Source of the DNA: a virus
Lineage: Duplodnaviria > Heunggongvirae > Uroviricota > Caudoviricetes
Direction: 5' to 3' (one strand)
Virus record (IMG/VR): IMGVR_UViG_2698536395_000013
DNA: 15,945 nt
Position 1 is the first letter of the stretch, and every line of letters begins with the position of its first letter. This document shows, piece by piece, positions 4,382-11,539 of the stretch. Position numbers and translations under genes: made by a program. The notes below the pieces were generated by a model. That model worked only from the letters and a program-made list of their open reading frames with translations. It searched no databases and was not told the origin of the DNA.

Positions 4382-4783
4382 TTATTTTAACTCATAGATC
4401 AGACAGTCAACGATTTCTAAACCATTTACCATAGAATTAGAAACGCGAACTTTACCATCGTTGACTCTAGCAAATCCTTTTAACATTTTATAAACAAAAG
4501 CTGAATCCCCCTTAGCCTCAATTGCTTCTAATGGTATCGGCTTATACTTTTTTGATATGCTATTTCTATTTATCTCACTGATTTTTCTATATATTTCTGC
4601 CGGCCCACGTTCTGAGAAGTCACTGATAACTAAAATATATCTCCAAGATAGATCTGGGTAATAAAACCACATTGCAGCATCAATAGTTAAATTCTGTAAC
4701 TTGAGTTTTTTTAACAAAAATTGACCTGAGAATTCCATATCTTTTGTCAACTCTCTGCCGATTACCAGTGTGCTTTTACCCAT
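4382..4783 (-). CDS. hypothetical protein, 133 aa, partner of the upstream HEPN gene
   Basis: ORF with GGAG SD 9 nt before the ATG at 4783; overlaps the HEPN stop by 22 nt, so the two genes are likely co-translated. AT-rich coding sequence. No motif recognised. Confidence 0.55.
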   Translation of the reverse strand: MGKSTLVIGRELTKDMEFSGQFLLKKLKLQNLTIDAAMWFYYPDLSWRYILVISDFSERGPAEIYRKISEINRNSISKKYKPIPLEAIEAKGDSAFVYKMLKGFARVNDGKVRVSNSMVNGLEIVDCLIYELK

Positions 4784-5178
4784 TTCAAAACTCCAGAATT
4801 TTGGTCACCTACAGCATCAAACAATTGTTCGGCCATAGCTTTACTTATGTTATTGTCGTATCTAAATTGCTCGCTCCAGTCTTTAACGACCGACCAGTTA
4901 ATCTCCAACGAAACATCATTTTTTGCGTCAGCAATCAAAATTTGATGTAAGTTGGCAATTTTGAGAAGTTGCGACAAATCATGAGTATATGAATCATTTA
5001 CGACTTTTTTGTTTGGAAACTCATGTTGTAAAAATGACTTGGCAATACAGGCCTTCAATGCACATTCAACTGCATACCCACAAAGATAATATGCACCATG
5101 AAAAAAGCCATGATCAAGCAAGCATTTGGCCTCATTAAGCCTAGTGTCAGATAATGCTTCAAGGTCGTTTTTATTCAT
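4762..5178 (-). CDS. HEPN-domain protein, 138 aa
   Basis: Translation ...EAKCLLDHGFFHGAYYLCGYAVECALKACIAKSFLQHEFPNKKVVNDSYTHDLSQLLKIANL... matches the classic HEPN helical pattern (A.E.ALKA ... tHDL..Ll). No canonical R-x4-6-H is visible before the His, so catalytic status is uncertain. Confidence 0.65.
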   Translation of the reverse strand: MNKNDLEALSDTRLNEAKCLLDHGFFHGAYYLCGYAVECALKACIAKSFLQHEFPNKKVVNDSYTHDLSQLLKIANLHQILIADAKNDVSLEINWSVVKDWSEQFRYDNNISKAMAEQLFDAVGDQNSGVLKWVKAHW

Positions 5179-5477: not shown

Positions 5478-6221
5478 TTACAGCCGTTCAGAACGTAAAT
5501 GCGTCAATACTCGACTCCACTTATCATCCTGCCACGGCCGGAATTTTACATGTGCCGTTTCTCTGGCAAGGATTGCCTGTGCCTTATTGAGTATCCGGGG
5601 ATATTCTTGTTCGATTGAAGTGAAGCGACCGGCTTCGCGGTGTTCTGCTACCTGAAGAAGCGGAGTGACGTTTTGGCAAGCGGTTAACATTGTGTCACTT
5701 GCCCGCCATAACCAAGCAAGTGTGCAAAGTTCGTTATCAGTGAATTGTTTTGTGATTGGGGATTGTTGAATTTCTCGATCGAGAATATCCAGCACCCAGC
5801 GGCGGAATTCTTTGGCCACAGGAGTGCGGGCGAACATGGCGATCAGATGGGCGCCACGGAGGGAGAAAATGCGAGTCTTCTTACGATAATTTCCTGAGGT
5901 CGTTGATTCGACGACCTGAGACATTCCGTCAGTAAACTCATCAATATTTTTGTTGTAGATGTCGGTTACTGCTTTGGTGCTGGCATATTTTAATGCTGCC
6001 GCCAATTCTTTGCTGGTAAACCAGATCTGGTTGTTGTGATTTATAGGAGTGAATTTTACATCGCGGAATGCGAGCTGAGTGACCATAGCGATAATCTCGT
6101 TTTGAATTTGAGCTATCACCACCGACGACGCCAATCGACTGGTGGTGGACTGTGCAAGGTTGGCGTAACCGGTCAAAACGAAATCCGGCGCTTCCGAAGA
6201 AGCCCTCACACAGCCCACCAT
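5478..6221 (-). CDS. Bro-N domain protein (Roi / antirepressor-like), about 247 aa; start uncertain
   Basis: Translation contains FRDVKFTPINHNNQIWFTSKELAAALKYASTKAVTDIYNKNIDEF, which resembles the Bro-N DNA-binding domain. Start chosen at MVGCV (ATG 6221) because the longer track ORF (to 6323) would read through an intrinsic terminator at 6249-6270. A later start at MVTQ (6089) is possible. Confidence 0.55.
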   Translation of the reverse strand: MVGCVRASSEAPDFVLTGYANLAQSTTSRLASSVVIAQIQNEIIAMVTQLAFRDVKFTPINHNNQIWFTSKELAAALKYASTKAVTDIYNKNIDEFTDGMSQVVESTTSGNYRKKTRIFSLRGAHLIAMFARTPVAKEFRRWVLDILDREIQQSPITKQFTDNELCTLAWLWRASDTMLTACQNVTPLLQVAEHREAGRFTSIEQEYPRILNKAQAILARETAHVKFRPWQDDKWSRVLTHLRSERL

Positions 6222-6248
6222 AATTTTTGTGTAGACGTGCACTGCGCA

Positions 6249-6270
6249 TAAAAAAACCGCGAACGCGGTT
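6249..6270 (-). terminator. intrinsic terminator on minus strand (nin-region tR-like) immediately upstream of the Bro-N gene
   Basis: 6-bp stem AACCGC/GCGGUU with a 4-nt loop, followed on the minus strand by UUUUUUA (plus 6249-6254 is TAAAAAA). Confidence 0.5.
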
Positions 6271-6330
6271 ATGCGTCGTTTTGATGTCCGGGACGCCAAT
6301 CCCGTGTGCCGATTTTGCGGCAACGCACAG

Positions 6331-6360
6331 AATATAGCGCCGGATAAATAATGTCGTCAA
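6331..6360 (-). promoter_or_regulatory. candidate sigma70 promoter on minus strand feeding the terminator/Bro-N leader
   Basis: Minus-strand TTGACG (6360..6355), 18-nt spacer, TATATT (6336..6331). The spacer is 1 nt longer than optimal. Sequence-only prediction. Confidence 0.3.
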
Positions 6361-6517
6361 CCCTTGCATATGGGGGGCGCGATGATCACTACTACCACCA
6401 TAATCGCTCCAACTGTTGCAACTACTTTAGGCTAAGACATCACGATTTCCATATCACCTTTAGCCGCCAGACAAACAGAGACTCCCTGTTCTTGGCTGCC
6501 AAAAACACCGAATGCAA

Positions 6518-6610
6518 AAAATCGCAGGTGTATTTCTGCATCTGTGGAGGGAGAAGAGAGTTTGGATTGTATGTGCGCATAAACGTCCCCGTTTAGCGCA
6601 GAAGTCACCG
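6518..6610. repeat. 93-bp direct repeat, copy B (right boundary of the inserted cassette)
   Basis: See copy A; the two copies are 2322 bp apart. Similarity stops abruptly on both sides of each copy. Confidence 0.85.
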
Positions 6611-6838
6611 TAGTTGTTCATATTCTGATGACATGATAATTTCCTATTGAATAGAAAAAATTAACACGACTCATTCTTATGACTGGAAAAAGCAATCATG
6701 CTAATAATCATTGTTGTTCCAGTTCCAAATGCAGCGAAATAATCACCAATATTTTTTCTACCGGTTTCGACTTTGATGCTATATTCTGCTAACACCTAAC
6801 TAACACTACGTTTCACACAGCAATTACATGGAAATAAC

Positions 6839-7186
6839 ATGACTATCAAAGCGACTGACATAGAGATTCTTCATCGTTATGCTGAAGGGGTAATGGAACG
6901 TTCTAACCATCATGCAAAAAATGTTGGTGCAGCCGCTCTTACATTGCTAGGAGGTGTTATCTGGAAAGCCCTGCCCGGATCAATCGAGATAAGAACGTAT
7001 AACGGAAGTCTTGCAAATATGGTGTGGTGGCAAAGCGAAAGAACATTAAAAAATTATGCAATCTCATACAACCATAATTCATGTGAAATTGAAATGAGAG
7101 ATGAATCAGTCAAAGGTGCTGTATTATTTAGCATTTCCAACGAAACCACTCCAGAAAAAATATTATCACAGCTTTCTGAGCTTTAA
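6839..7186 (+). CDS. hypothetical protein, 115 aa, solitary plus-strand gene inside the minus-strand early-right operon
   Basis: ORF MTIKATDIEILHRYAEGVMERSNHHAKNVGAAALTLLGGVIWKALPGSIEIRTYNGSLANMVWWQSERTLKNY.... Very AT-rich gene and upstream region. Extended -10 TGcTATATT at 6777-6785. Followed by a hairpin at 7192-7209. No family recognised. Confidence 0.55.
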   Translation: MTIKATDIEILHRYAEGVMERSNHHAKNVGAAALTLLGGVIWKALPGSIEIRTYNGSLANMVWWQSERTLKNYAISYNHNSCEIEMRDESVKGAVLFSISNETTPEKILSQLSEL

Positions 7187-7191
7187 TTAAA

Positions 7192-7209
7192 GGCGGTGCT
7201 AACACCGCC
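7192..7209 (-). terminator. hairpin between the convergent 115-aa gene and P; candidate tR2-like terminator for the minus-strand operon
   Basis: 7-bp stem GGCGGTG/CACCGCC with loop CTAA. On the minus strand it is followed by UUUAAUUAAAG; on the plus strand there is no T-run. Confidence 0.4.
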
Positions 7210-7390
7210 CATACCATTACTCCACATCTTACGCAACTTGATAATTATGCTCTATTAAATACCCACAATATTTCATCAATGCATGGGTCAGCTACAAAAT
7301 GTTTACCGTGGTAATTCCTGTTTTCGCAACATCTCAAAAGAACAATAAACACTGTATTTCTTCAAGTAACGAAGAATCTTTCTTTGCCCG

Positions 7391-8092
7391 TCATACACTT
7401 GCTCCTTTCAGCCCAAACTTAGCTTTGATTTCTGCGATCTTCGCCAGAGCCTGTGCACGATTTAGAGGTCTACCGCCCATAACAGGAAGTTGTTTTACTG
7501 GTTCAGGTATCGTCTCACCACGGTTAATTCGCGCTGTCATACAGGTCAGTTCATCGGCAGCCTTGCGCCGTAATTCCGCGTCAGTCAGCGCATTGGCCCG
7601 CATGTTCTGGTACAGGTTGGTAACCAACCAGTAATGCGCGTTCGATTTCCACGGATAAGACTCTGCATCCGGATACAGGCCACGCTTCCGGCAATACTCG
7701 TAAACCATATCAACCAGCTCGCTGACGTTTGGCAGCCCGGCGTTAACGGATGCTTCTTCCCGGCACCATGCAACAAACTGCCCGGGTGATGGCAGAAATG
7801 GTCTATTCTGCCGACGGGCAACACGCATTCCGGCGCTCACCTGTTCCATCGTGGTGATCCCGTTTTCCCGGAAAGCCAGAACCCACTGGCGGCGGATTTC
7901 GTTCAGTTCGTTCTGGTCACGATTAGCCAGGCTCGCCGGGAAAGTTGCCAGTAACTGGCTGAATACACCGTTGATTATCTGCGCTACCTGCTGTACCTGC
8001 GGCTTTTCGTCGTACTGTTCCGGCATGTTGTTGGCGATCCGACGCATCTGCTCACGGTCAAAGTTAATCATCTGTGCGGCGATGTTTTTCAT
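7391..8092 (-). CDS. P: replication protein P (DnaB helicase loader), 233 aa
   Basis: Translation MKNIAAQMINFDREQMRRIANNMPEQYDEKPQVQQVAQIINGVFSQLLATFPASLANRDQNELNEIRRQWVLAFRENGITTMEQV...AKIAEIKAKFGLKGASV is close to lambda P as I recall it. ATG overlaps the O stop (ATGA). The extended track ORF (to 8197) is rejected. Confidence 0.9.
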   Translation of the reverse strand: MKNIAAQMINFDREQMRRIANNMPEQYDEKPQVQQVAQIINGVFSQLLATFPASLANRDQNELNEIRRQWVLAFRENGITTMEQVSAGMRVARRQNRPFLPSPGQFVAWCREEASVNAGLPNVSELVDMVYEYCRKRGLYPDAESYPWKSNAHYWLVTNLYQNMRANALTDAELRRKAADELTCMTARINRGETIPEPVKQLPVMGGRPLNRAQALAKIAEIKAKFGLKGASV

Positions 8093-9018
8093 AGATCCAC
8101 CCCGTAAATCCAGTCTGTGTTTGTCAGGTCGAGTTTTGGTTTGCCGACTGTCACGCCAGCCTGTTGCTTGTTCCGGTTGATTTCGAGCTGGGTCCACTTG
8201 TCGCGGAGTTTGGCCGGACTCAGCACGTTACCGGACCAGAAGTTGTCCTGGCAGGCCCAGCGGAACAGTACACACATGTCGCGGTGGTTACGTCCATCAC
8301 GTTCACGCATCAGACGGATATCGTTAGCCCACCCTGCAAAATTCGGTTTTCTGGCTGATGGCGCGATGGTCTTCACCATGTCAAACATCCACTCTGCGGC
8401 GGTCAGGTCTTCTGCTGTCCCCCACTTGCTGCCGCTCTGAATCGCAGCATCCGCTTTCACCACAGGAAGGTCGTTTTCTGGCAGGTCAGAGGATTCGCCA
8501 GAATTCTCGGACGAATAAGGTTTTATATTGTCTTTTGTTAGTTTGTCTTTTGTGTTTACCTGATTCGGGTAAGTGCCTTTACCTGATTTGGGTAAACTTT
8601 TCTTACCTGATTCAGGTAAATTTACCTCTTTCAGGTAAACTTTATTTTTCTTACCTGATTCGGGTAATGTTGACCATTCACTGACCACATTATTAATGCC
8701 GATATTCCGCCCGCTCTGAATAAAAATCCCACGCTTTACCAGAACACTTTTTGCAGCAGAACACTTGTGCGGCAATATCCCGGTCAACTCGGAAAGTTGC
8801 TCGTTGCTCACCCAGTCCAGTTTTTTATTAAAGCCATATGTTTTGCGCATGACAGCCAGGAAGACCAGAAGCTGGTGCTGTGTTAATCCGGCCAGCATTA
8901 CAGCTTCCAGCAACTCATTTGCAATGCGCGTATAACCATCATCGAGATCTGCCACGCGCGGCTCCTTTTGTGCCGCATCCGGCACTGGAAAATTGAATAT
9001 CTCAGCAGTGTTTGCCAT
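8089..9018 (-). CDS. O: replication initiator O, 309 aa; N-terminal iteron-binding domain diverged, C-terminal P-interaction domain lambda-like
   Basis: Starts MANTAEIFNFPVPDAAQKEPRVADLDDGY with GGGAGG SD. The C-terminal part AIQSGSKWGTAEDLTAAEWMFDMVKTIAPSARKPNFAGWANDIRLMRERDGRNHRDMCVLFRWACQDNFWSGNVLSPAKLRDKWTQLEINRNKQQAGVT is close to lambda O. The iteron array lies inside the gene. Confidence 0.9.
   Translation of the reverse strand: MANTAEIFNFPVPDAAQKEPRVADLDDGYTRIANELLEAVMLAGLTQHQLLVFLAVMRKTYGFNKKLDWVSNEQLSELTGILPHKCSAAKSVLVKRGIFIQSGRNIGINNVVSEWSTLPESGKKNKVYLKEVNLPESGKKSLPKSGKGTYPNQVNTKDKLTKDNIKPYSSENSGESSDLPENDLPVVKADAAIQSGSKWGTAEDLTAAEWMFDMVKTIAPSARKPNFAGWANDIRLMRERDGRNHRDMCVLFRWACQDNFWSGNVLSPAKLRDKWTQLEINRNKQQAGVTVGKPKLDLTNTDWIYGVDL
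8556..8667. repeat. ori iterons: five copies of a 17-bp near-palindrome TTACCTGATTCGGGTAA inside the O gene, next to an AT-rich segment (about 8500-8555)
   Basis: Copies at 8556-8572, 8579-8595, 8603-8619, 8622-8638 and 8651-8667 with 1-3 substitutions. Encoded as the repetitive LPESGK peptide in O. Confidence 0.8.
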
Positions 9019-9104
9019 AATTCCTCCCGCAATGAGTGTGTTACGATTTGCACCTGAAAGTCGGTTCTGTTCCAGCAGACCGGCTTTCGCCATTTCTGAA
9101 CCTG

Positions 9105-9644
9105 TCATATCGCCCCCAGCATGGTAGTAACCATCGCCATCAATGGACCAGCCAGCTCTGGGTCCACACGAAACATCGACACAATACCTTCACTAATTTC
9201 CTTCAGTTTCTGGTGGCGTGGTGCGTTGAGAATGACAGCCTGTTTTGCCTCACTGAGTTCCTTTTCCATTTCAGCCAACCTAGCCATGAAGCTATCCTGC
9301 TCAACCAGGTAACCGCGATATTCCAGCGGTAGTACCGCCAGAATTGCCGGGGTCAGTTCACGCACGTTATTTCGGTATTTTTCAGAATCGAATTTGTTAT
9401 CGAGGAAGCGGAACAGCTTCTGGCGTGTACGGCTGACATCATCAGGGAAATCGATGGTGCCGCCGCCCTGCTCCCGATACTCATTCACAATGAGTGTGGC
9501 AACGACATCCTGATTATCTACAGCCGACCAGGCGCGGACGGCATCACGGATTTTTTCGTGGCCTGGCACCTGTTTTGTTTGAGAACGATTTATCACCGCA
9601 GTCGGGCTAAATCCGCTAGTCTGTTGGTATGGAAGTGGTTGCAT
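9105..9644 (-). CDS. hypothetical phage regulatory protein in the cII position, 179 aa
   Basis: ORF with AAGGAG SD before the ATG at 9644, between cro and O. Much longer than lambda CII (97 aa) and no HTH recognised by eye. Functional assignment is positional only. Confidence 0.45.
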   Translation of the reverse strand: MQPLPYQQTSGFSPTAVINRSQTKQVPGHEKIRDAVRAWSAVDNQDVVATLIVNEYREQGGGTIDFPDDVSRTRQKLFRFLDNKFDSEKYRNNVRELTPAILAVLPLEYRGYLVEQDSFMARLAEMEKELSEAKQAVILNAPRHQKLKEISEGIVSMFRVDPELAGPLMAMVTTMLGAI

Positions 9645-9713: not shown

Positions 9714-9944
9714 TTAAGCTGCGTTCTTTTCGGTGTGTGGAAACAACTTCGGAAGATCCGGGCGAATCTGGTATGCCTTCACTACTCCACCAGTAGCCGT
9801 AACAATGCTGCCGACATGTTCAGGGGATACCTTTGCTTTGTTGTGAAGCCACTTATAGACGGCCTGCTGTGAAACTTCGCAGGCAGCGCCCAGTTTCTTT
9901 TGTGAACCAACGATATTGATCGCTGTTTTGATAGCTGGGTTCAT
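9714..9944 (-). CDS. cro: Cro-like HTH repressor (Cro/YdaS family), 76 aa
   Basis: Translation MNPAIKTAINIVGSQKKLGAACEVSQQAVYKWLHNKAKVSPEH contains a helix-turn-helix (QKKLGAACEVSQQAVYKW). GGAGG SD. Divergent from cI across an operator region. Confidence 0.7.
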   Translation of the reverse strand: MNPAIKTAINIVGSQKKLGAACEVSQQAVYKWLHNKAKVSPEHVGSIVTATGGVVKAYQIRPDLPKLFPHTEKNAA

Positions 9945-10048: not shown

Positions 10049-10738
10049 ATGAAAACAACACTCTCAGAAAGACTTAAAGAAGCCAGATTAGCGCGAGGCC
10101 TTACACAAAAGGCGCTTGGGGATTTGGTCGGGGTTAGCCAGGCTGCTATTCAGAAAATCGAAACAGGGAAAGCTAATCAAACAACTAAAATCGTGGAGAT
10201 CGCGAACGCTTTGGGTGTGCGCGCAGAATGGTTATCTTCTGGCGTTGGAAATATGTCAGACAGTACAGTGCAACCAATACAATCAACTGTCAGCCATTCC
10301 AAATACTTCAAGATTGACGTTCTTGATATAGAAGTCAGTGCTGGGCCGGGAGTCATCAACCGTGAGTTTGTAGAAGTTCTACGCTCGGTTGAGTACTCGT
10401 TTGACGATGCTCGTCACATGTTCGATGGTAGGAAGGCAGAAAATATCCGCATCATTAACGTGCGTGGTGACAGCATGTCAGGAACGATCGAACCAGGTGA
10501 TCTGCTGTTCGTTGATATCACGGTTAAATCTTTCGACGGTGATGGTATCTATGCATTTCTGTACGACGACACCGCCCATGTAAAGCGCCTGCAAATGATG
10601 AAGGATAAACTGCTGGTTATCTCTGATAACAAGAGCTACTCACCGTGGGACCCTATCGAGAAAGACGAGATGAACCGGGTATTCATATTCGGTAAGGTTA
10701 TTGGGAGCATGCCGCAGACGTACAGAAAACACGGATAA
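10049..10738 (+). CDS. cI: CI-type prophage repressor (N-terminal HTH, C-terminal S24 LexA-like autopeptidase), 229 aa, probably leaderless
   Basis: Translation MKTTLSERLKEARLARGLTQKALGDLVGVSQAAIQKIETGKA (HTH) ... INVRGDSMSGTIEPGDLLFVD ... VKRL (Ser/Lys dyad context). No SD; the ATG lies about 7 nt after the putative -10. The upstream in-frame ATG at 9983 lies inside the operator and is rejected. Confidence 0.85.
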   Translation: MKTTLSERLKEARLARGLTQKALGDLVGVSQAAIQKIETGKANQTTKIVEIANALGVRAEWLSSGVGNMSDSTVQPIQSTVSHSKYFKIDVLDIEVSAGPGVINREFVEVLRSVEYSFDDARHMFDGRKAENIRIINVRGDSMSGTIEPGDLLFVDITVKSFDGDGIYAFLYDDTAHVKRLQMMKDKLLVISDNKSYSPWDPIEKDEMNRVFIFGKVIGSMPQTYRKHG

Positions 10739-10819: not shown

Positions 10820-11083
10820 ATGAGTAATAAAACACTTGTTAAAAAATCAAATAACTGTGTCGATGCATACGCCGACGCGTTTGGCTACTCTTCGTTTGGT
10901 GACGGCTCTCAGCGCCTAGGTTCAATTTCTTTTTTTCATAATGTAACTGAATGGCCTGTTGATGAAAGTGACGATGTTGAGAACATAAAGTACAACATTG
11001 CAACCATTAGAATGCCCGAAGAATTGATGCTTAAATTGGCTGACTTCATTCGCGACCAGCATGACAAAGCTAAAACAAACTAA
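10820..11083 (+). CDS. hypothetical acidic protein, 87 aa, first gene in the rexA-equivalent position
   Basis: ORF downstream of cI on the same strand; AT-rich; GGGAAAGG upstream of the ATG. No family recognised. Confidence 0.5.
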   Translation: MSNKTLVKKSNNCVDAYADAFGYSSFGDGSQRLGSISFFHNVTEWPVDESDDVENIKYNIATIRMPEELMLKLADFIRDQHDKAKTN

Positions 11084-11095
11084 TCGTAATTAATT

Positions 11096-11539
11096 ATGAA
11101 ACACGATTATTACGAAGCTCCAAACCTAAATGATAAAATTGCAAAGGCGGCAGAATCATTTTGTTTGCACTCCAGTGCGTCTTCCCAGCTAGCAGGTATA
11201 TCTGGAAAAAGATGGGACATGCTACAATCAAGTGGTAGCAGTGGGTCTGGGAGTGATAACATGCCTGAAAAAGTTGCAAAACTGGAGTCCGATGTTGCTC
11301 ATATCAAACGAGACGTTGATGAACTTAAAACAGACGTTAAAGCTATCGACAAAAATATGATAACTATTCTTGCACGTCTGGACTCTATAAAAGAATCCTT
11401 AACAAACAAGCCATCAAGTGATGCTGTCGATAGAAAGATTTCAGACGCAAAGCTTGCGGTATTGCTTGGTGTTCCAGCAATCATCGCTGCAGGAACAGGA
11501 CTTTATAAGCTATCAATGTACTTTTTCTTTAGTGCTTAA
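11096..11539 (+). CDS. hypothetical coiled-coil protein with C-terminal transmembrane anchor, 147 aa (alternative start at 11261 gives 92 aa)
   Basis: Heptad-like segment KVAKLESDVAHIKRDVDELKTDVKAIDKNMITILARLDSIKESL followed by the hydrophobic LAVLLGVPAIIAAGTGLY. The ATG at 11096 has no SD; the in-frame ATG at 11261 has GGGAG upstream. Confidence 0.5.
   Translation: MKHDYYEAPNLNDKIAKAAESFCLHSSASSQLAGISGKRWDMLQSSGSSGSGSDNMPEKVAKLESDVAHIKRDVDELKTDVKAIDKNMITILARLDSIKESLTNKPSSDAVDRKISDAKLAVLLGVPAIIAAGTGLYKLSMYFFFSA

Follow-up and report, generated by a model that had tools for sequence, protein, structure and literature searches.

We found that, in a lambdoid prophage of enterohaemorrhagic (EHEC)-type Escherichia coli, a 770-bp low-GC block has replaced ren immediately downstream of gene P, and that the single gene of this block is selectively maintained and encodes a cytoplasmic member of the Vch_cass14 family. 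These observations are best accounted for by an accessory unit of the moron type that took the place of ren. The explanation taken as a whole (a ren-replacing moron with a pocket protein as its product and, most likely, a function in conflict) is in our judgement the probable one, if by a modest measure.

Genomic context of the Vch_cass14 gene

The window (the whole stretch of 15,945 nucleotides that was analysed) represents the early and late-regulatory region of the lambdoid prophage, and the 1.2 kb around the Vch_cass14 gene are 100% identical to the chromosomes of O26, O103 and O157 strains. Its map was drawn from the RefSeq annotation of one identical chromosome together with Pfam scans, and contains:

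10049-10738, plus strand: cI, followed by two small uncharacterised genes and then by kil-gam-bet-exo
9714-9944, minus strand: Cro/YdaS-like gene (RefSeq/Pfam)
9105-9644, minus strand: YdaT (RefSeq/Pfam)
8089-9108, minus strand: O (RefSeq/Pfam)
7391-8092, minus strand: P (RefSeq/Pfam)
6839-7186, plus strand: coding sequence of the Vch_cass14-family gene, 115 aa (RefSeq WP_000152742.1)
5478-6086, minus strand: Bro-N/P22_AR_C antirepressor-like gene (RefSeq/Pfam)
after Bro-N/P22_AR_C in the order of transcription, minus strand: HEPN pair, ybcN-ninE-ybcO-rusA-ylcG-Q, lysis genes

The order of the minus-strand genes places the early-right operon on the minus strand, and the Vch_cass14 ORF is antisense to it. 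A preliminary description of this DNA had pointed to a 115-aa plus-strand ORF that is solitary and antisense to its surroundings, and both points are accurate: the ORF coincides with the RefSeq-annotated gene, which is the sole plus-strand gene between a porin gene (1016-2098) and cI, with minus-strand genes on either side (P, O, YdaT and the cro-like gene on one, Bro-N/P22_AR_C on the other). Some 9,000 assembly blocks contain the identical protein, and all ten E. coli places sampled from these show one and the same local order (Bro-N/P22_AR_C, Vch_cass14 gene, P-O-YdaT).

The window holds several other features of accessory character. The porin gene (OmpC/NmpC-like, 360 aa, plus strand) lies antisense between Q and the lysis genes, is preceded by very AT-rich DNA (29-30% GC at 600-1050) and is a second moron-like plus-strand gene of the window. 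The rexAB-position slot 3' of cI (10820-11539, plus strand) is occupied by two uncharacterised genes (87 and 147 aa), instead of which sibling prophages with the same P-O-YdaT block (L043, L045, L047 and L049) carry SIR2_2, DUF7946/DUF7947 or DUF3800; this slot is a variable cargo hotspot, co-expressed with the repressor. Within the nin region, a gene for a HEPN-domain protein (4762-5178, minus strand; Pfam HEPN; PADLOC candidate PDC-M28A, E 1.8e-7) shares 22 nt with a 133-aa ORF that matched no family (4382-4783, minus strand), and the two may constitute a two-gene toxin-antitoxin or defence module. Furthermore, gathering-level Rfam matches to the isrK Hfq-binding RNA (6250-6322, minus strand) and to the C4 antisense RNA (6138-6225, minus strand) lie on the same strand as, and directly 5' of, the Bro-N/P22_AR_C antirepressor-like gene, and there is a good sigma-70-like site at 6360-6331 (TTGACG-18-TATATT, minus strand). 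Because of these elements the region looks like a separate RNA-controlled antirepressor unit, resembling the P1 immI or Gifsy IsrK style, and not simply like a part of the early-right operon. A minus-strand terminator-like site (6523-6540; a 5-bp stem and then ATTTTTTGCA) is situated between the isrK unit and the Vch_cass14 gene, and this plus-strand gene is flanked by two minus-strand terminator-like sites (6523-6540 and 7192-7209).

A low-GC block in the place of ren

In lambda, ren is normally the gene after P (the two meet in an ATGA overlap of the ren start with the end of P) and protects the phage from Rex exclusion. At this position the window shows:

6611-6838, plus strand: AT-rich upstream part of the block (228 bp, 32.5% GC), left homology break at 6610/6611
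7210-7380, no strand assigned: AT-rich right part of the block, whose right edge carries decayed 5' sequence of ren; lambda homology ends at ~7381
7362-7394, minus strand: ren stub (MTGKERFFVT-stop), overlapping the P stop codon and aligned with lambda

On the right flank, similarity to lambda, 434, 21, HK140 and many other phages covers P and stops at ~7381, and the left flank resembles phage IdasGreatGrand over 6300-6610 and no further. The claim of a very AT-rich leader is borne out by the composition of 6611-6838 (32.5% GC, versus 48-51% in the flanks: 48.5% on the left, 50.8% in P and O on the right), and GC is also low in the ORF (38.5%, with 30% at third codon positions), in 7187-7380 (36.6%) and in the whole block 6611-7380 (36.2%). 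The block thus shows two characteristics by which morons are recognised, namely a base composition distinct from that of the surrounding phage genes and a site between genes that is differently filled, or contiguous, in related phages. At the start that in lambda initiates Ren (MTGKEAIIHY...), the prophage encodes MTGKERFFVT-stop, its first five codons (MTGKE) being those of lambda Ren; this truncated start (MTGKE and five out-of-frame codons) persists after P, and the block therefore displaced ren and left a stub behind.

The preliminary description had named homology to a housekeeping phage function, such as a ren-like protein, as evidence that would count against a novel factor. The gene is not ren-like: searches of Pfam (E ≤10) and PHROGs (E ≤1) gave only PF18315, phrog_5959 (unknown function) and noise, without any ren family.

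The block is found in 181 of 5,426 complete E. coli genomes (3%), and in all 181 carriers it is single-copy, whole and at least 99% identical. Neither the block nor its gene occurs in 50,697 deposited phage genomes, even by tblastn, and so the carriers may be largely defective prophages; signs of prophage decay are seen in the ren stub, in a pseudogene (6503-6580) and in a nearby IS3 element. DNA similar to the AT-rich upstream region was found nowhere in phage records, and Rfam detected no regulatory RNA in 6400-7450. We also considered, as the source of the upstream DNA, a decayed copy of the theta-subunit-like gene that borders the Citrobacter orthologues; this idea is unsupported, the only resemblance being a 7-residue match (NIASKSK vs NIAAKSQ; E 0.27 in a tiny search space).

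A portable unit in different prophage backbones

Homologues with 73-78% identity are present in Citrobacter on three lambdoid prophage backbones, which differ in their replication modules (of the DnaB or the O/DnaC type) and in which the homologues stand alone on their own strand between ead/replication genes and a theta-subunit-like gene followed by ninB. The same solitary antisense arrangement characterizes IMG/VR copies at 72-75% identity, and two more distant IMG/VR copies (49% identity, in unrelated metagenomic viral contigs) are also antisense, between a methyltransferase/ParB pair and a phrog_914 gene with antirepressor/regulator genes beyond. At the DNA level the similarity between E. 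coli and Citrobacter starts ~45-75 nt 5' of the ATG and ends with the hairpin after the gene: the portable unit that they have in common comprises a short 5' leader with a ribosome-binding site, the ORF and a stem-loop. Comparison with the Citrobacter and Serratia copies gave dN/dS values of 0.05-0.14 (with saturated synonymous sites), indicative of strong purifying selection. The regulatory features in and around the unit are:

6777-6785, plus strand: candidate extended -10 element (TGCTATATT), 53 nt 5' of the ATG, best -35 matching 3/6
6830-6835, plus strand: ribosome-binding region GGAAAT, conserved as GGAAAT[G/A]A[T/C]ATG in the Citrobacter DNA alignment
7192-7209, no strand assigned: hairpin GGCGGTG-CTAA-CACCGCC, 5 nt after the stop codon, with a 7-bp G+C-rich stem

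The strong hairpin reported earlier is real (-13.2 kcal/mol, z -3.7, with none of 200 shuffles folding as well), and its stem is kept by compensatory changes (GGCGGTG/CACCGCC here, GGCGGCA/TGCCGCC in L002 and L003, GGCGGC/GCCGCC in L067 and L069). The accompanying notion that it is shared with the convergent P gene has to be revised, since it lies 182 nt from the P stop codon and has its T-rich tail on the minus strand (TTTAATT, 7191-7185), the plus strand continuing as CATACCA with no U-tract. The corresponding minus-strand (phage-operon) tails are TATTTTT in L002 and L003, TTGATTT in L067 and TTTTTTT in L069, and only L069 has TTT after the hairpin on the gene's own strand. Given this T-rich tail on the phage-operon strand, the conserved stem-loop looks like a terminator facing incoming early-right transcription; as a terminator for the Vch_cass14 gene itself it would be weakly bidirectional at best. 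A consensus terminator scan listed the hairpin on neither strand. During lytic growth, N- or Q-type antitermination could override a minus-strand terminator of this kind.

As for the promoter that the gene had been said to own, the motif TGCTATATT is indeed present at its reported place, but such motifs are no more frequent than chance predicts, and orthologues do not share it. Matches to TGNTATAAT with at most one mismatch number 10 in the window (15.8 ± 4.4 expected from shuffles), the best -35 for the candidate (TCTACC) agrees at 3/6 positions, and a consensus promoter scan of 6300-7500 returned 4 sites (3.0 expected) among which the TGCTATATT site is not listed; two other weak sigma-70 matches are likewise at chance level. 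Moreover, the motif is absent from the Citrobacter orthologues, and conservation between the E. coli and Citrobacter units does not extend to the upstream promoter region. We thus treat TGCTATATT as a plausible candidate only; if the gene has a promoter, 6611-6838 must contain it. A perfect 10-nt direct repeat (TGCTAACACC, plus strand, 6787-6796 and 7197-7206, the second copy forming the loop and 3' arm of the hairpin) brackets leader, ORF and hairpin; we do not regard it as meaningful, since chance alone would give ~0.5 repeats of this kind per 1 kb and the Citrobacter copies lack it.

The product and its pocket

The protein had been described as having no assignable features, which proved incorrect, as it belongs to Pfam PF18315 (VCH_CASS14), a family with a crystal structure (3IMO). 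The profile match is strong (E 5.7e-20; 71.7 bits against a gathering cut-off of 26.7; residues 12-104 to profile positions 2-92 of 97), the 3IMO chain is matched with E 1.3e-17, and in one RefSeq genome the gene already bears the label 'Vch_cass14 family protein'. According to an AlphaFold2 model made from 74 family sequences (pLDDT 94.3, pTM 0.86), the fold is predicted to be of the 3IMO type, a two-layer sandwich of the order beta1-alpha1-alpha2-beta2..beta6-alpha3. The alpha+beta two-layer sandwiches of frataxin/CyaY-like, YdhG-like and YjbR-like proteins score far below family level and differ in the order of strands and helices, so that no functional inference from them is warranted.

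The structure 3IMO is that of Vch_cass14, a Vibrio cholerae integron cassette protein and founding member of the family (from an integron cassette of an environmental Vibrio), which in the crystal and in solution forms a homodimer of alpha+beta sandwiches through their helix faces (Sureshan et al. 2013, PMC3548836). Each subunit possesses a hydrophobic pocket ~15 Å deep, buried within the monomer and holding a linear organic molecule, with a gate of Tyr14, Arg21 and Asn60 at which acetate is bound (PMC3548836). In our alignment with 3IMO, each of the 17 hydrophobic pocket positions has either the residue of 3IMO or a conservative replacement (16 are hydrophobic; A22 is replaced by Ser), and 74/74 family sequences, the E. 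coli prophage copy included, share the gate residues Y14, R21 and N60. Invariance extends to H25 and W63 and is nearly reached by H24, Y73, N78 and H79. From this conservation, the prophage protein is predicted to keep the deep hydrophobic pocket with its polar gate, and by analogy with 3IMO it is presumably a dimer.

The family is a small one, falling into 282 clusters (50% identity) in a library of 1.84 billion representatives, and its members are nearly all stand-alone proteins of ~113 aa, mostly mildly acidic (median pI 6.4). A search for fusion partners was fruitless: the few longer members have no second informative domain, and one of them (a transposase-type HTH with a partial domain) is probably a gene-call artefact. 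No family of PADLOC-DB v2.0.0 matches the protein at E ≤ 0.1, nor does any NCBIfam model, and there is no structural similarity to solved anti-defence proteins. Literature searches with the accession, with 'Vch_cass14 family' and with the PHROG id returned nothing, and none of the literature on integron defence cassettes is known to cover the family.

Integron cassettes lie next to an integron and carry, downstream of the ORF, an attC site, which is an imperfectly palindromic stretch of 60-140 nt with the core motifs RYYYAAC and GTTRRRY. In 7151-7400 there are no attC core-site motifs, the sole structure is the 18-nt hairpin and the context is that of a prophage; an integron gene cassette, or an integron origin visible in the DNA, was rejected on these grounds.

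Neighbours of distant relatives

We surveyed the neighbourhoods of distant relatives at 33 genome loci (from a contig profile search with a 12-sequence alignment), in 3 plasmid hits (2 inspected) and in 10 further contig look-ups, using crude ORF calls and no matched background control. The relatives are typically cargo of small integrative islands: at least 6 loci have a tyrosine integrase gene that runs into the stop codon of the family member or stands only a few genes away, and the vicinity also holds transposase genes, one for a serine recombinase and toxin-antitoxin genes (HigA, Gp49/HigB, TacA, HipA). The gene located directly upstream on the same strand is frequently of a defence type (DruA, GmrSD_N, HNH_2, two Eco57I-type methylase proteins, and the AIPR and AAA_13 genes described below); anti-restriction ardC (one relative) and the error-prone DnaE2 polymerase (n=3) also occur there. 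Some relatives are flanked by plain metabolic genes.

In Serratia marcescens (L005-L007, 4218-6348), an AIPR gene ends 34 nt upstream of the family member, and in L078/L079 (3299-7354; a metagenomic and a MAG contig) an AAA_13 ATPase gene lies upstream, with phospholipase C and integrase genes downstream. The gaps between AIPR or AAA_13 gene and family member are 18-34 nt, and these loci may be multi-gene defence loci that include the Vch_cass14 protein.

Directly downstream, at least 3 unrelated protein families were encountered. At 8 loci this place is taken by an uncharacterised ~165-aa protein, and in 5 of them the next gene (two genes downstream of the family member) codes for a Fic protein that fits the SoFic defence model; elsewhere the partner is DUF2513 (n=2), an uncharacterised ~180-aa protein (n=2), or nothing. 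A fixed two-gene system was rejected after all-against-all clustering of the neighbours, which gave lineage-restricted partners only, and the want of a constant partner gene argues for a protein that works alone. Taken together, the neighbours point, on circumstantial grounds, to phage-host or inter-element conflict.

Proposed role and alternatives

The moron architecture proposed in the preliminary description stands as regards the solitary antisense position, the foreign sharp-edged block, the conserved hairpin and the recurrence in other backbones; the support for the promoter and the orientation of the terminator did not hold up. We propose that in the repressed prophage the gene would be transcribed alone, its promoter lying within the 228 AT-rich bp upstream; a promoter of its own in the lysogen is suggested by the fact that no phage promoter points that way (pRM and the genes downstream of it run away rightward). 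The stem-loop would mainly shield the gene from convergent early-right transcription, and might in addition serve to terminate or stabilise the mRNA of the gene. Its product probably needs no partner and would, as a homodimer, bind a linear amphipathic small molecule ~15 Å long. The most speculative step concerns the selected function, which may lie in phage-host or inter-element conflict (exclusion, sensing or modulation). Such a conflict-related function is the most likely among the alternatives, because the relatives are integrative-island cargo and often lie beside defence genes, the evidence being circumstantial. A housekeeping phage function is less likely, and the lysogenic-conversion or exclusion role suggested at the outset is possible, with mild support from the defence-island neighbourhoods of the relatives.

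Among the competing explanations, that of host-fitness cargo unrelated to phages, with the protein as a carrier, sensor or enzyme for a lipid-like molecule (e.g. a medium-chain fatty acid), is unlikely but the first to be weighed. It would account for the ~15 Å pocket with its bound linear organic molecule and for the Arg/Tyr/Asn gate that holds acetate in 3IMO, and H24, H25, N78 and H79, all of them invariant or nearly so, might belong to an active site; in line with it, some relatives sit among metabolic genes, the founding member is an environmental Vibrio integron cassette, and the gene would have been spread by mobile elements as many integron cassettes are. However, the neighbourhoods are dominated by integrases and by toxin-antitoxin, restriction-modification and abortive-infection genes and not by any metabolic pathway, no metabolic partner is conserved, and recurrent solitary antisense placement in prophage early regions typifies genes that serve the prophage-host pair.

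Quite unlikely, in our view, is a counter-defence gene that the phage or mobile element directs against host immunity, for example in the form of an orphan antitoxin-like neutraliser or a sponge for a hydrophobic signalling molecule; it would be made early in infection or at induction and not in the lysogen. Phages carry this protein, which is small, presumably oligomeric and pocket-bearing, and many of its relatives come first in a tight two-gene pair whose small second gene varies (the DUF2513, ~165-aa and ~180-aa partners, seen 2, 8 and 2 times), an arrangement that resembles mix-and-match toxin-antitoxin pairs; the superintegron that supplied Vch_cass14 is known for its toxin-antitoxin cassettes, and the relative next to ardC directly follows this anti-restriction gene. 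Against these points, all phage contexts encountered have the gene running against the early operon, which is poorly suited to early lytic expression; the hydrophobic pocket is buried in each monomer, unlike in known nucleotide sponges; no solved anti-defence protein is structurally similar; and family members also reside in chromosomal defence islands, 3' of defence genes themselves.

We regard it as very improbable that the gene is a silent passenger, with its ORF intact but without meaningful expression in a decaying prophage, and with a promoter and terminator that are chance AT-rich features. The chance-level promoter motifs, the lack of the gene in any sequenced free phage and the decay of the prophage (ren stub, pseudogene, nearby IS3) would fit such a state, but the low dN/dS across the E. 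coli, Citrobacter and Serratia copies, the covariation of the hairpin, the conserved ribosome-binding region and the intactness of the block (at least 99% identity) in all of its complete carrier genomes speak against it. Lastly, a spurious ORF overlying a real minus-strand gene or non-coding DNA, for which only the short minus-strand ORFs that overlap the region could be adduced, is refuted by the Pfam (E 6e-20) and PDB (E 1e-17) matches, the confident fold prediction, the strong purifying selection and the 282 clusters of the family in the 1.84-billion representative library.

Going beyond the ren-replacing moron of the prophage itself, one may conceive of the Vch_cass14 family as a hitherto unrecognised, self-contained phage-host conflict module that travels on prophages, integrons and islands, whose gated pocket would sense or sequester an amphipathic molecule and whose E. 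coli copy would be a lysogen-expressed exclusion or immunity-modulating factor; this wider reading is tentative, and we think it doubtful. Should the account proposed for the prophage gene hold, a family so far familiar only as an orphan of structural genomics from a Vibrio integron would acquire a biological context, as a stand-alone cargo that E. coli and Citrobacter temperate phages keep antisense and insulated in their early region and that lies beside defence genes in islands. As it stands, the gene is one more prophage accessory gene. Since it is common in Shiga-toxigenic E. coli lineages, and since a high-resolution structure of a homologue with a ligand-filled pocket exists, it is a cheap and well-defined candidate for phage-challenge experiments and for ligand identification.

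Comparison with known systems

The Vch_cass14 gene shares with lambda ren the slot immediately downstream of P and the character of a non-essential accessory gene at a known mosaic junction, and differs from it in being on the opposite strand and unrelated in sequence. The classical lambdoid morons (lambda bor, lom and rexAB, HK97 gp15) are reportedly those defined by Juhala and Hendrix. Like them, it is an extra gene that is present or absent among relatives, foreign in composition and oriented independently of the operon, with a candidate promoter and a stem-loop at its flanks; unlike them, its unit has the U-tract of the stem-loop facing the phage operon, and its product is soluble, cytoplasmic and pocket-bearing, whereas bor, lom and gp15 are membrane or surface proteins. 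In comparison with Vch_cass14 (3IMO) it is the vehicle that differs, which here is a solitary antisense prophage gene with flanks of its own and not a promoterless integron cassette. A moron at the P/ren/nin junction and the PF18315 family with its solved structure are thus both of known kinds; what is new is the placement of the Vch_cass14 family in temperate phages in a conserved solitary antisense arrangement, with a stem-loop oriented towards the phage operon, and the company that the family keeps with integrases and defence genes.
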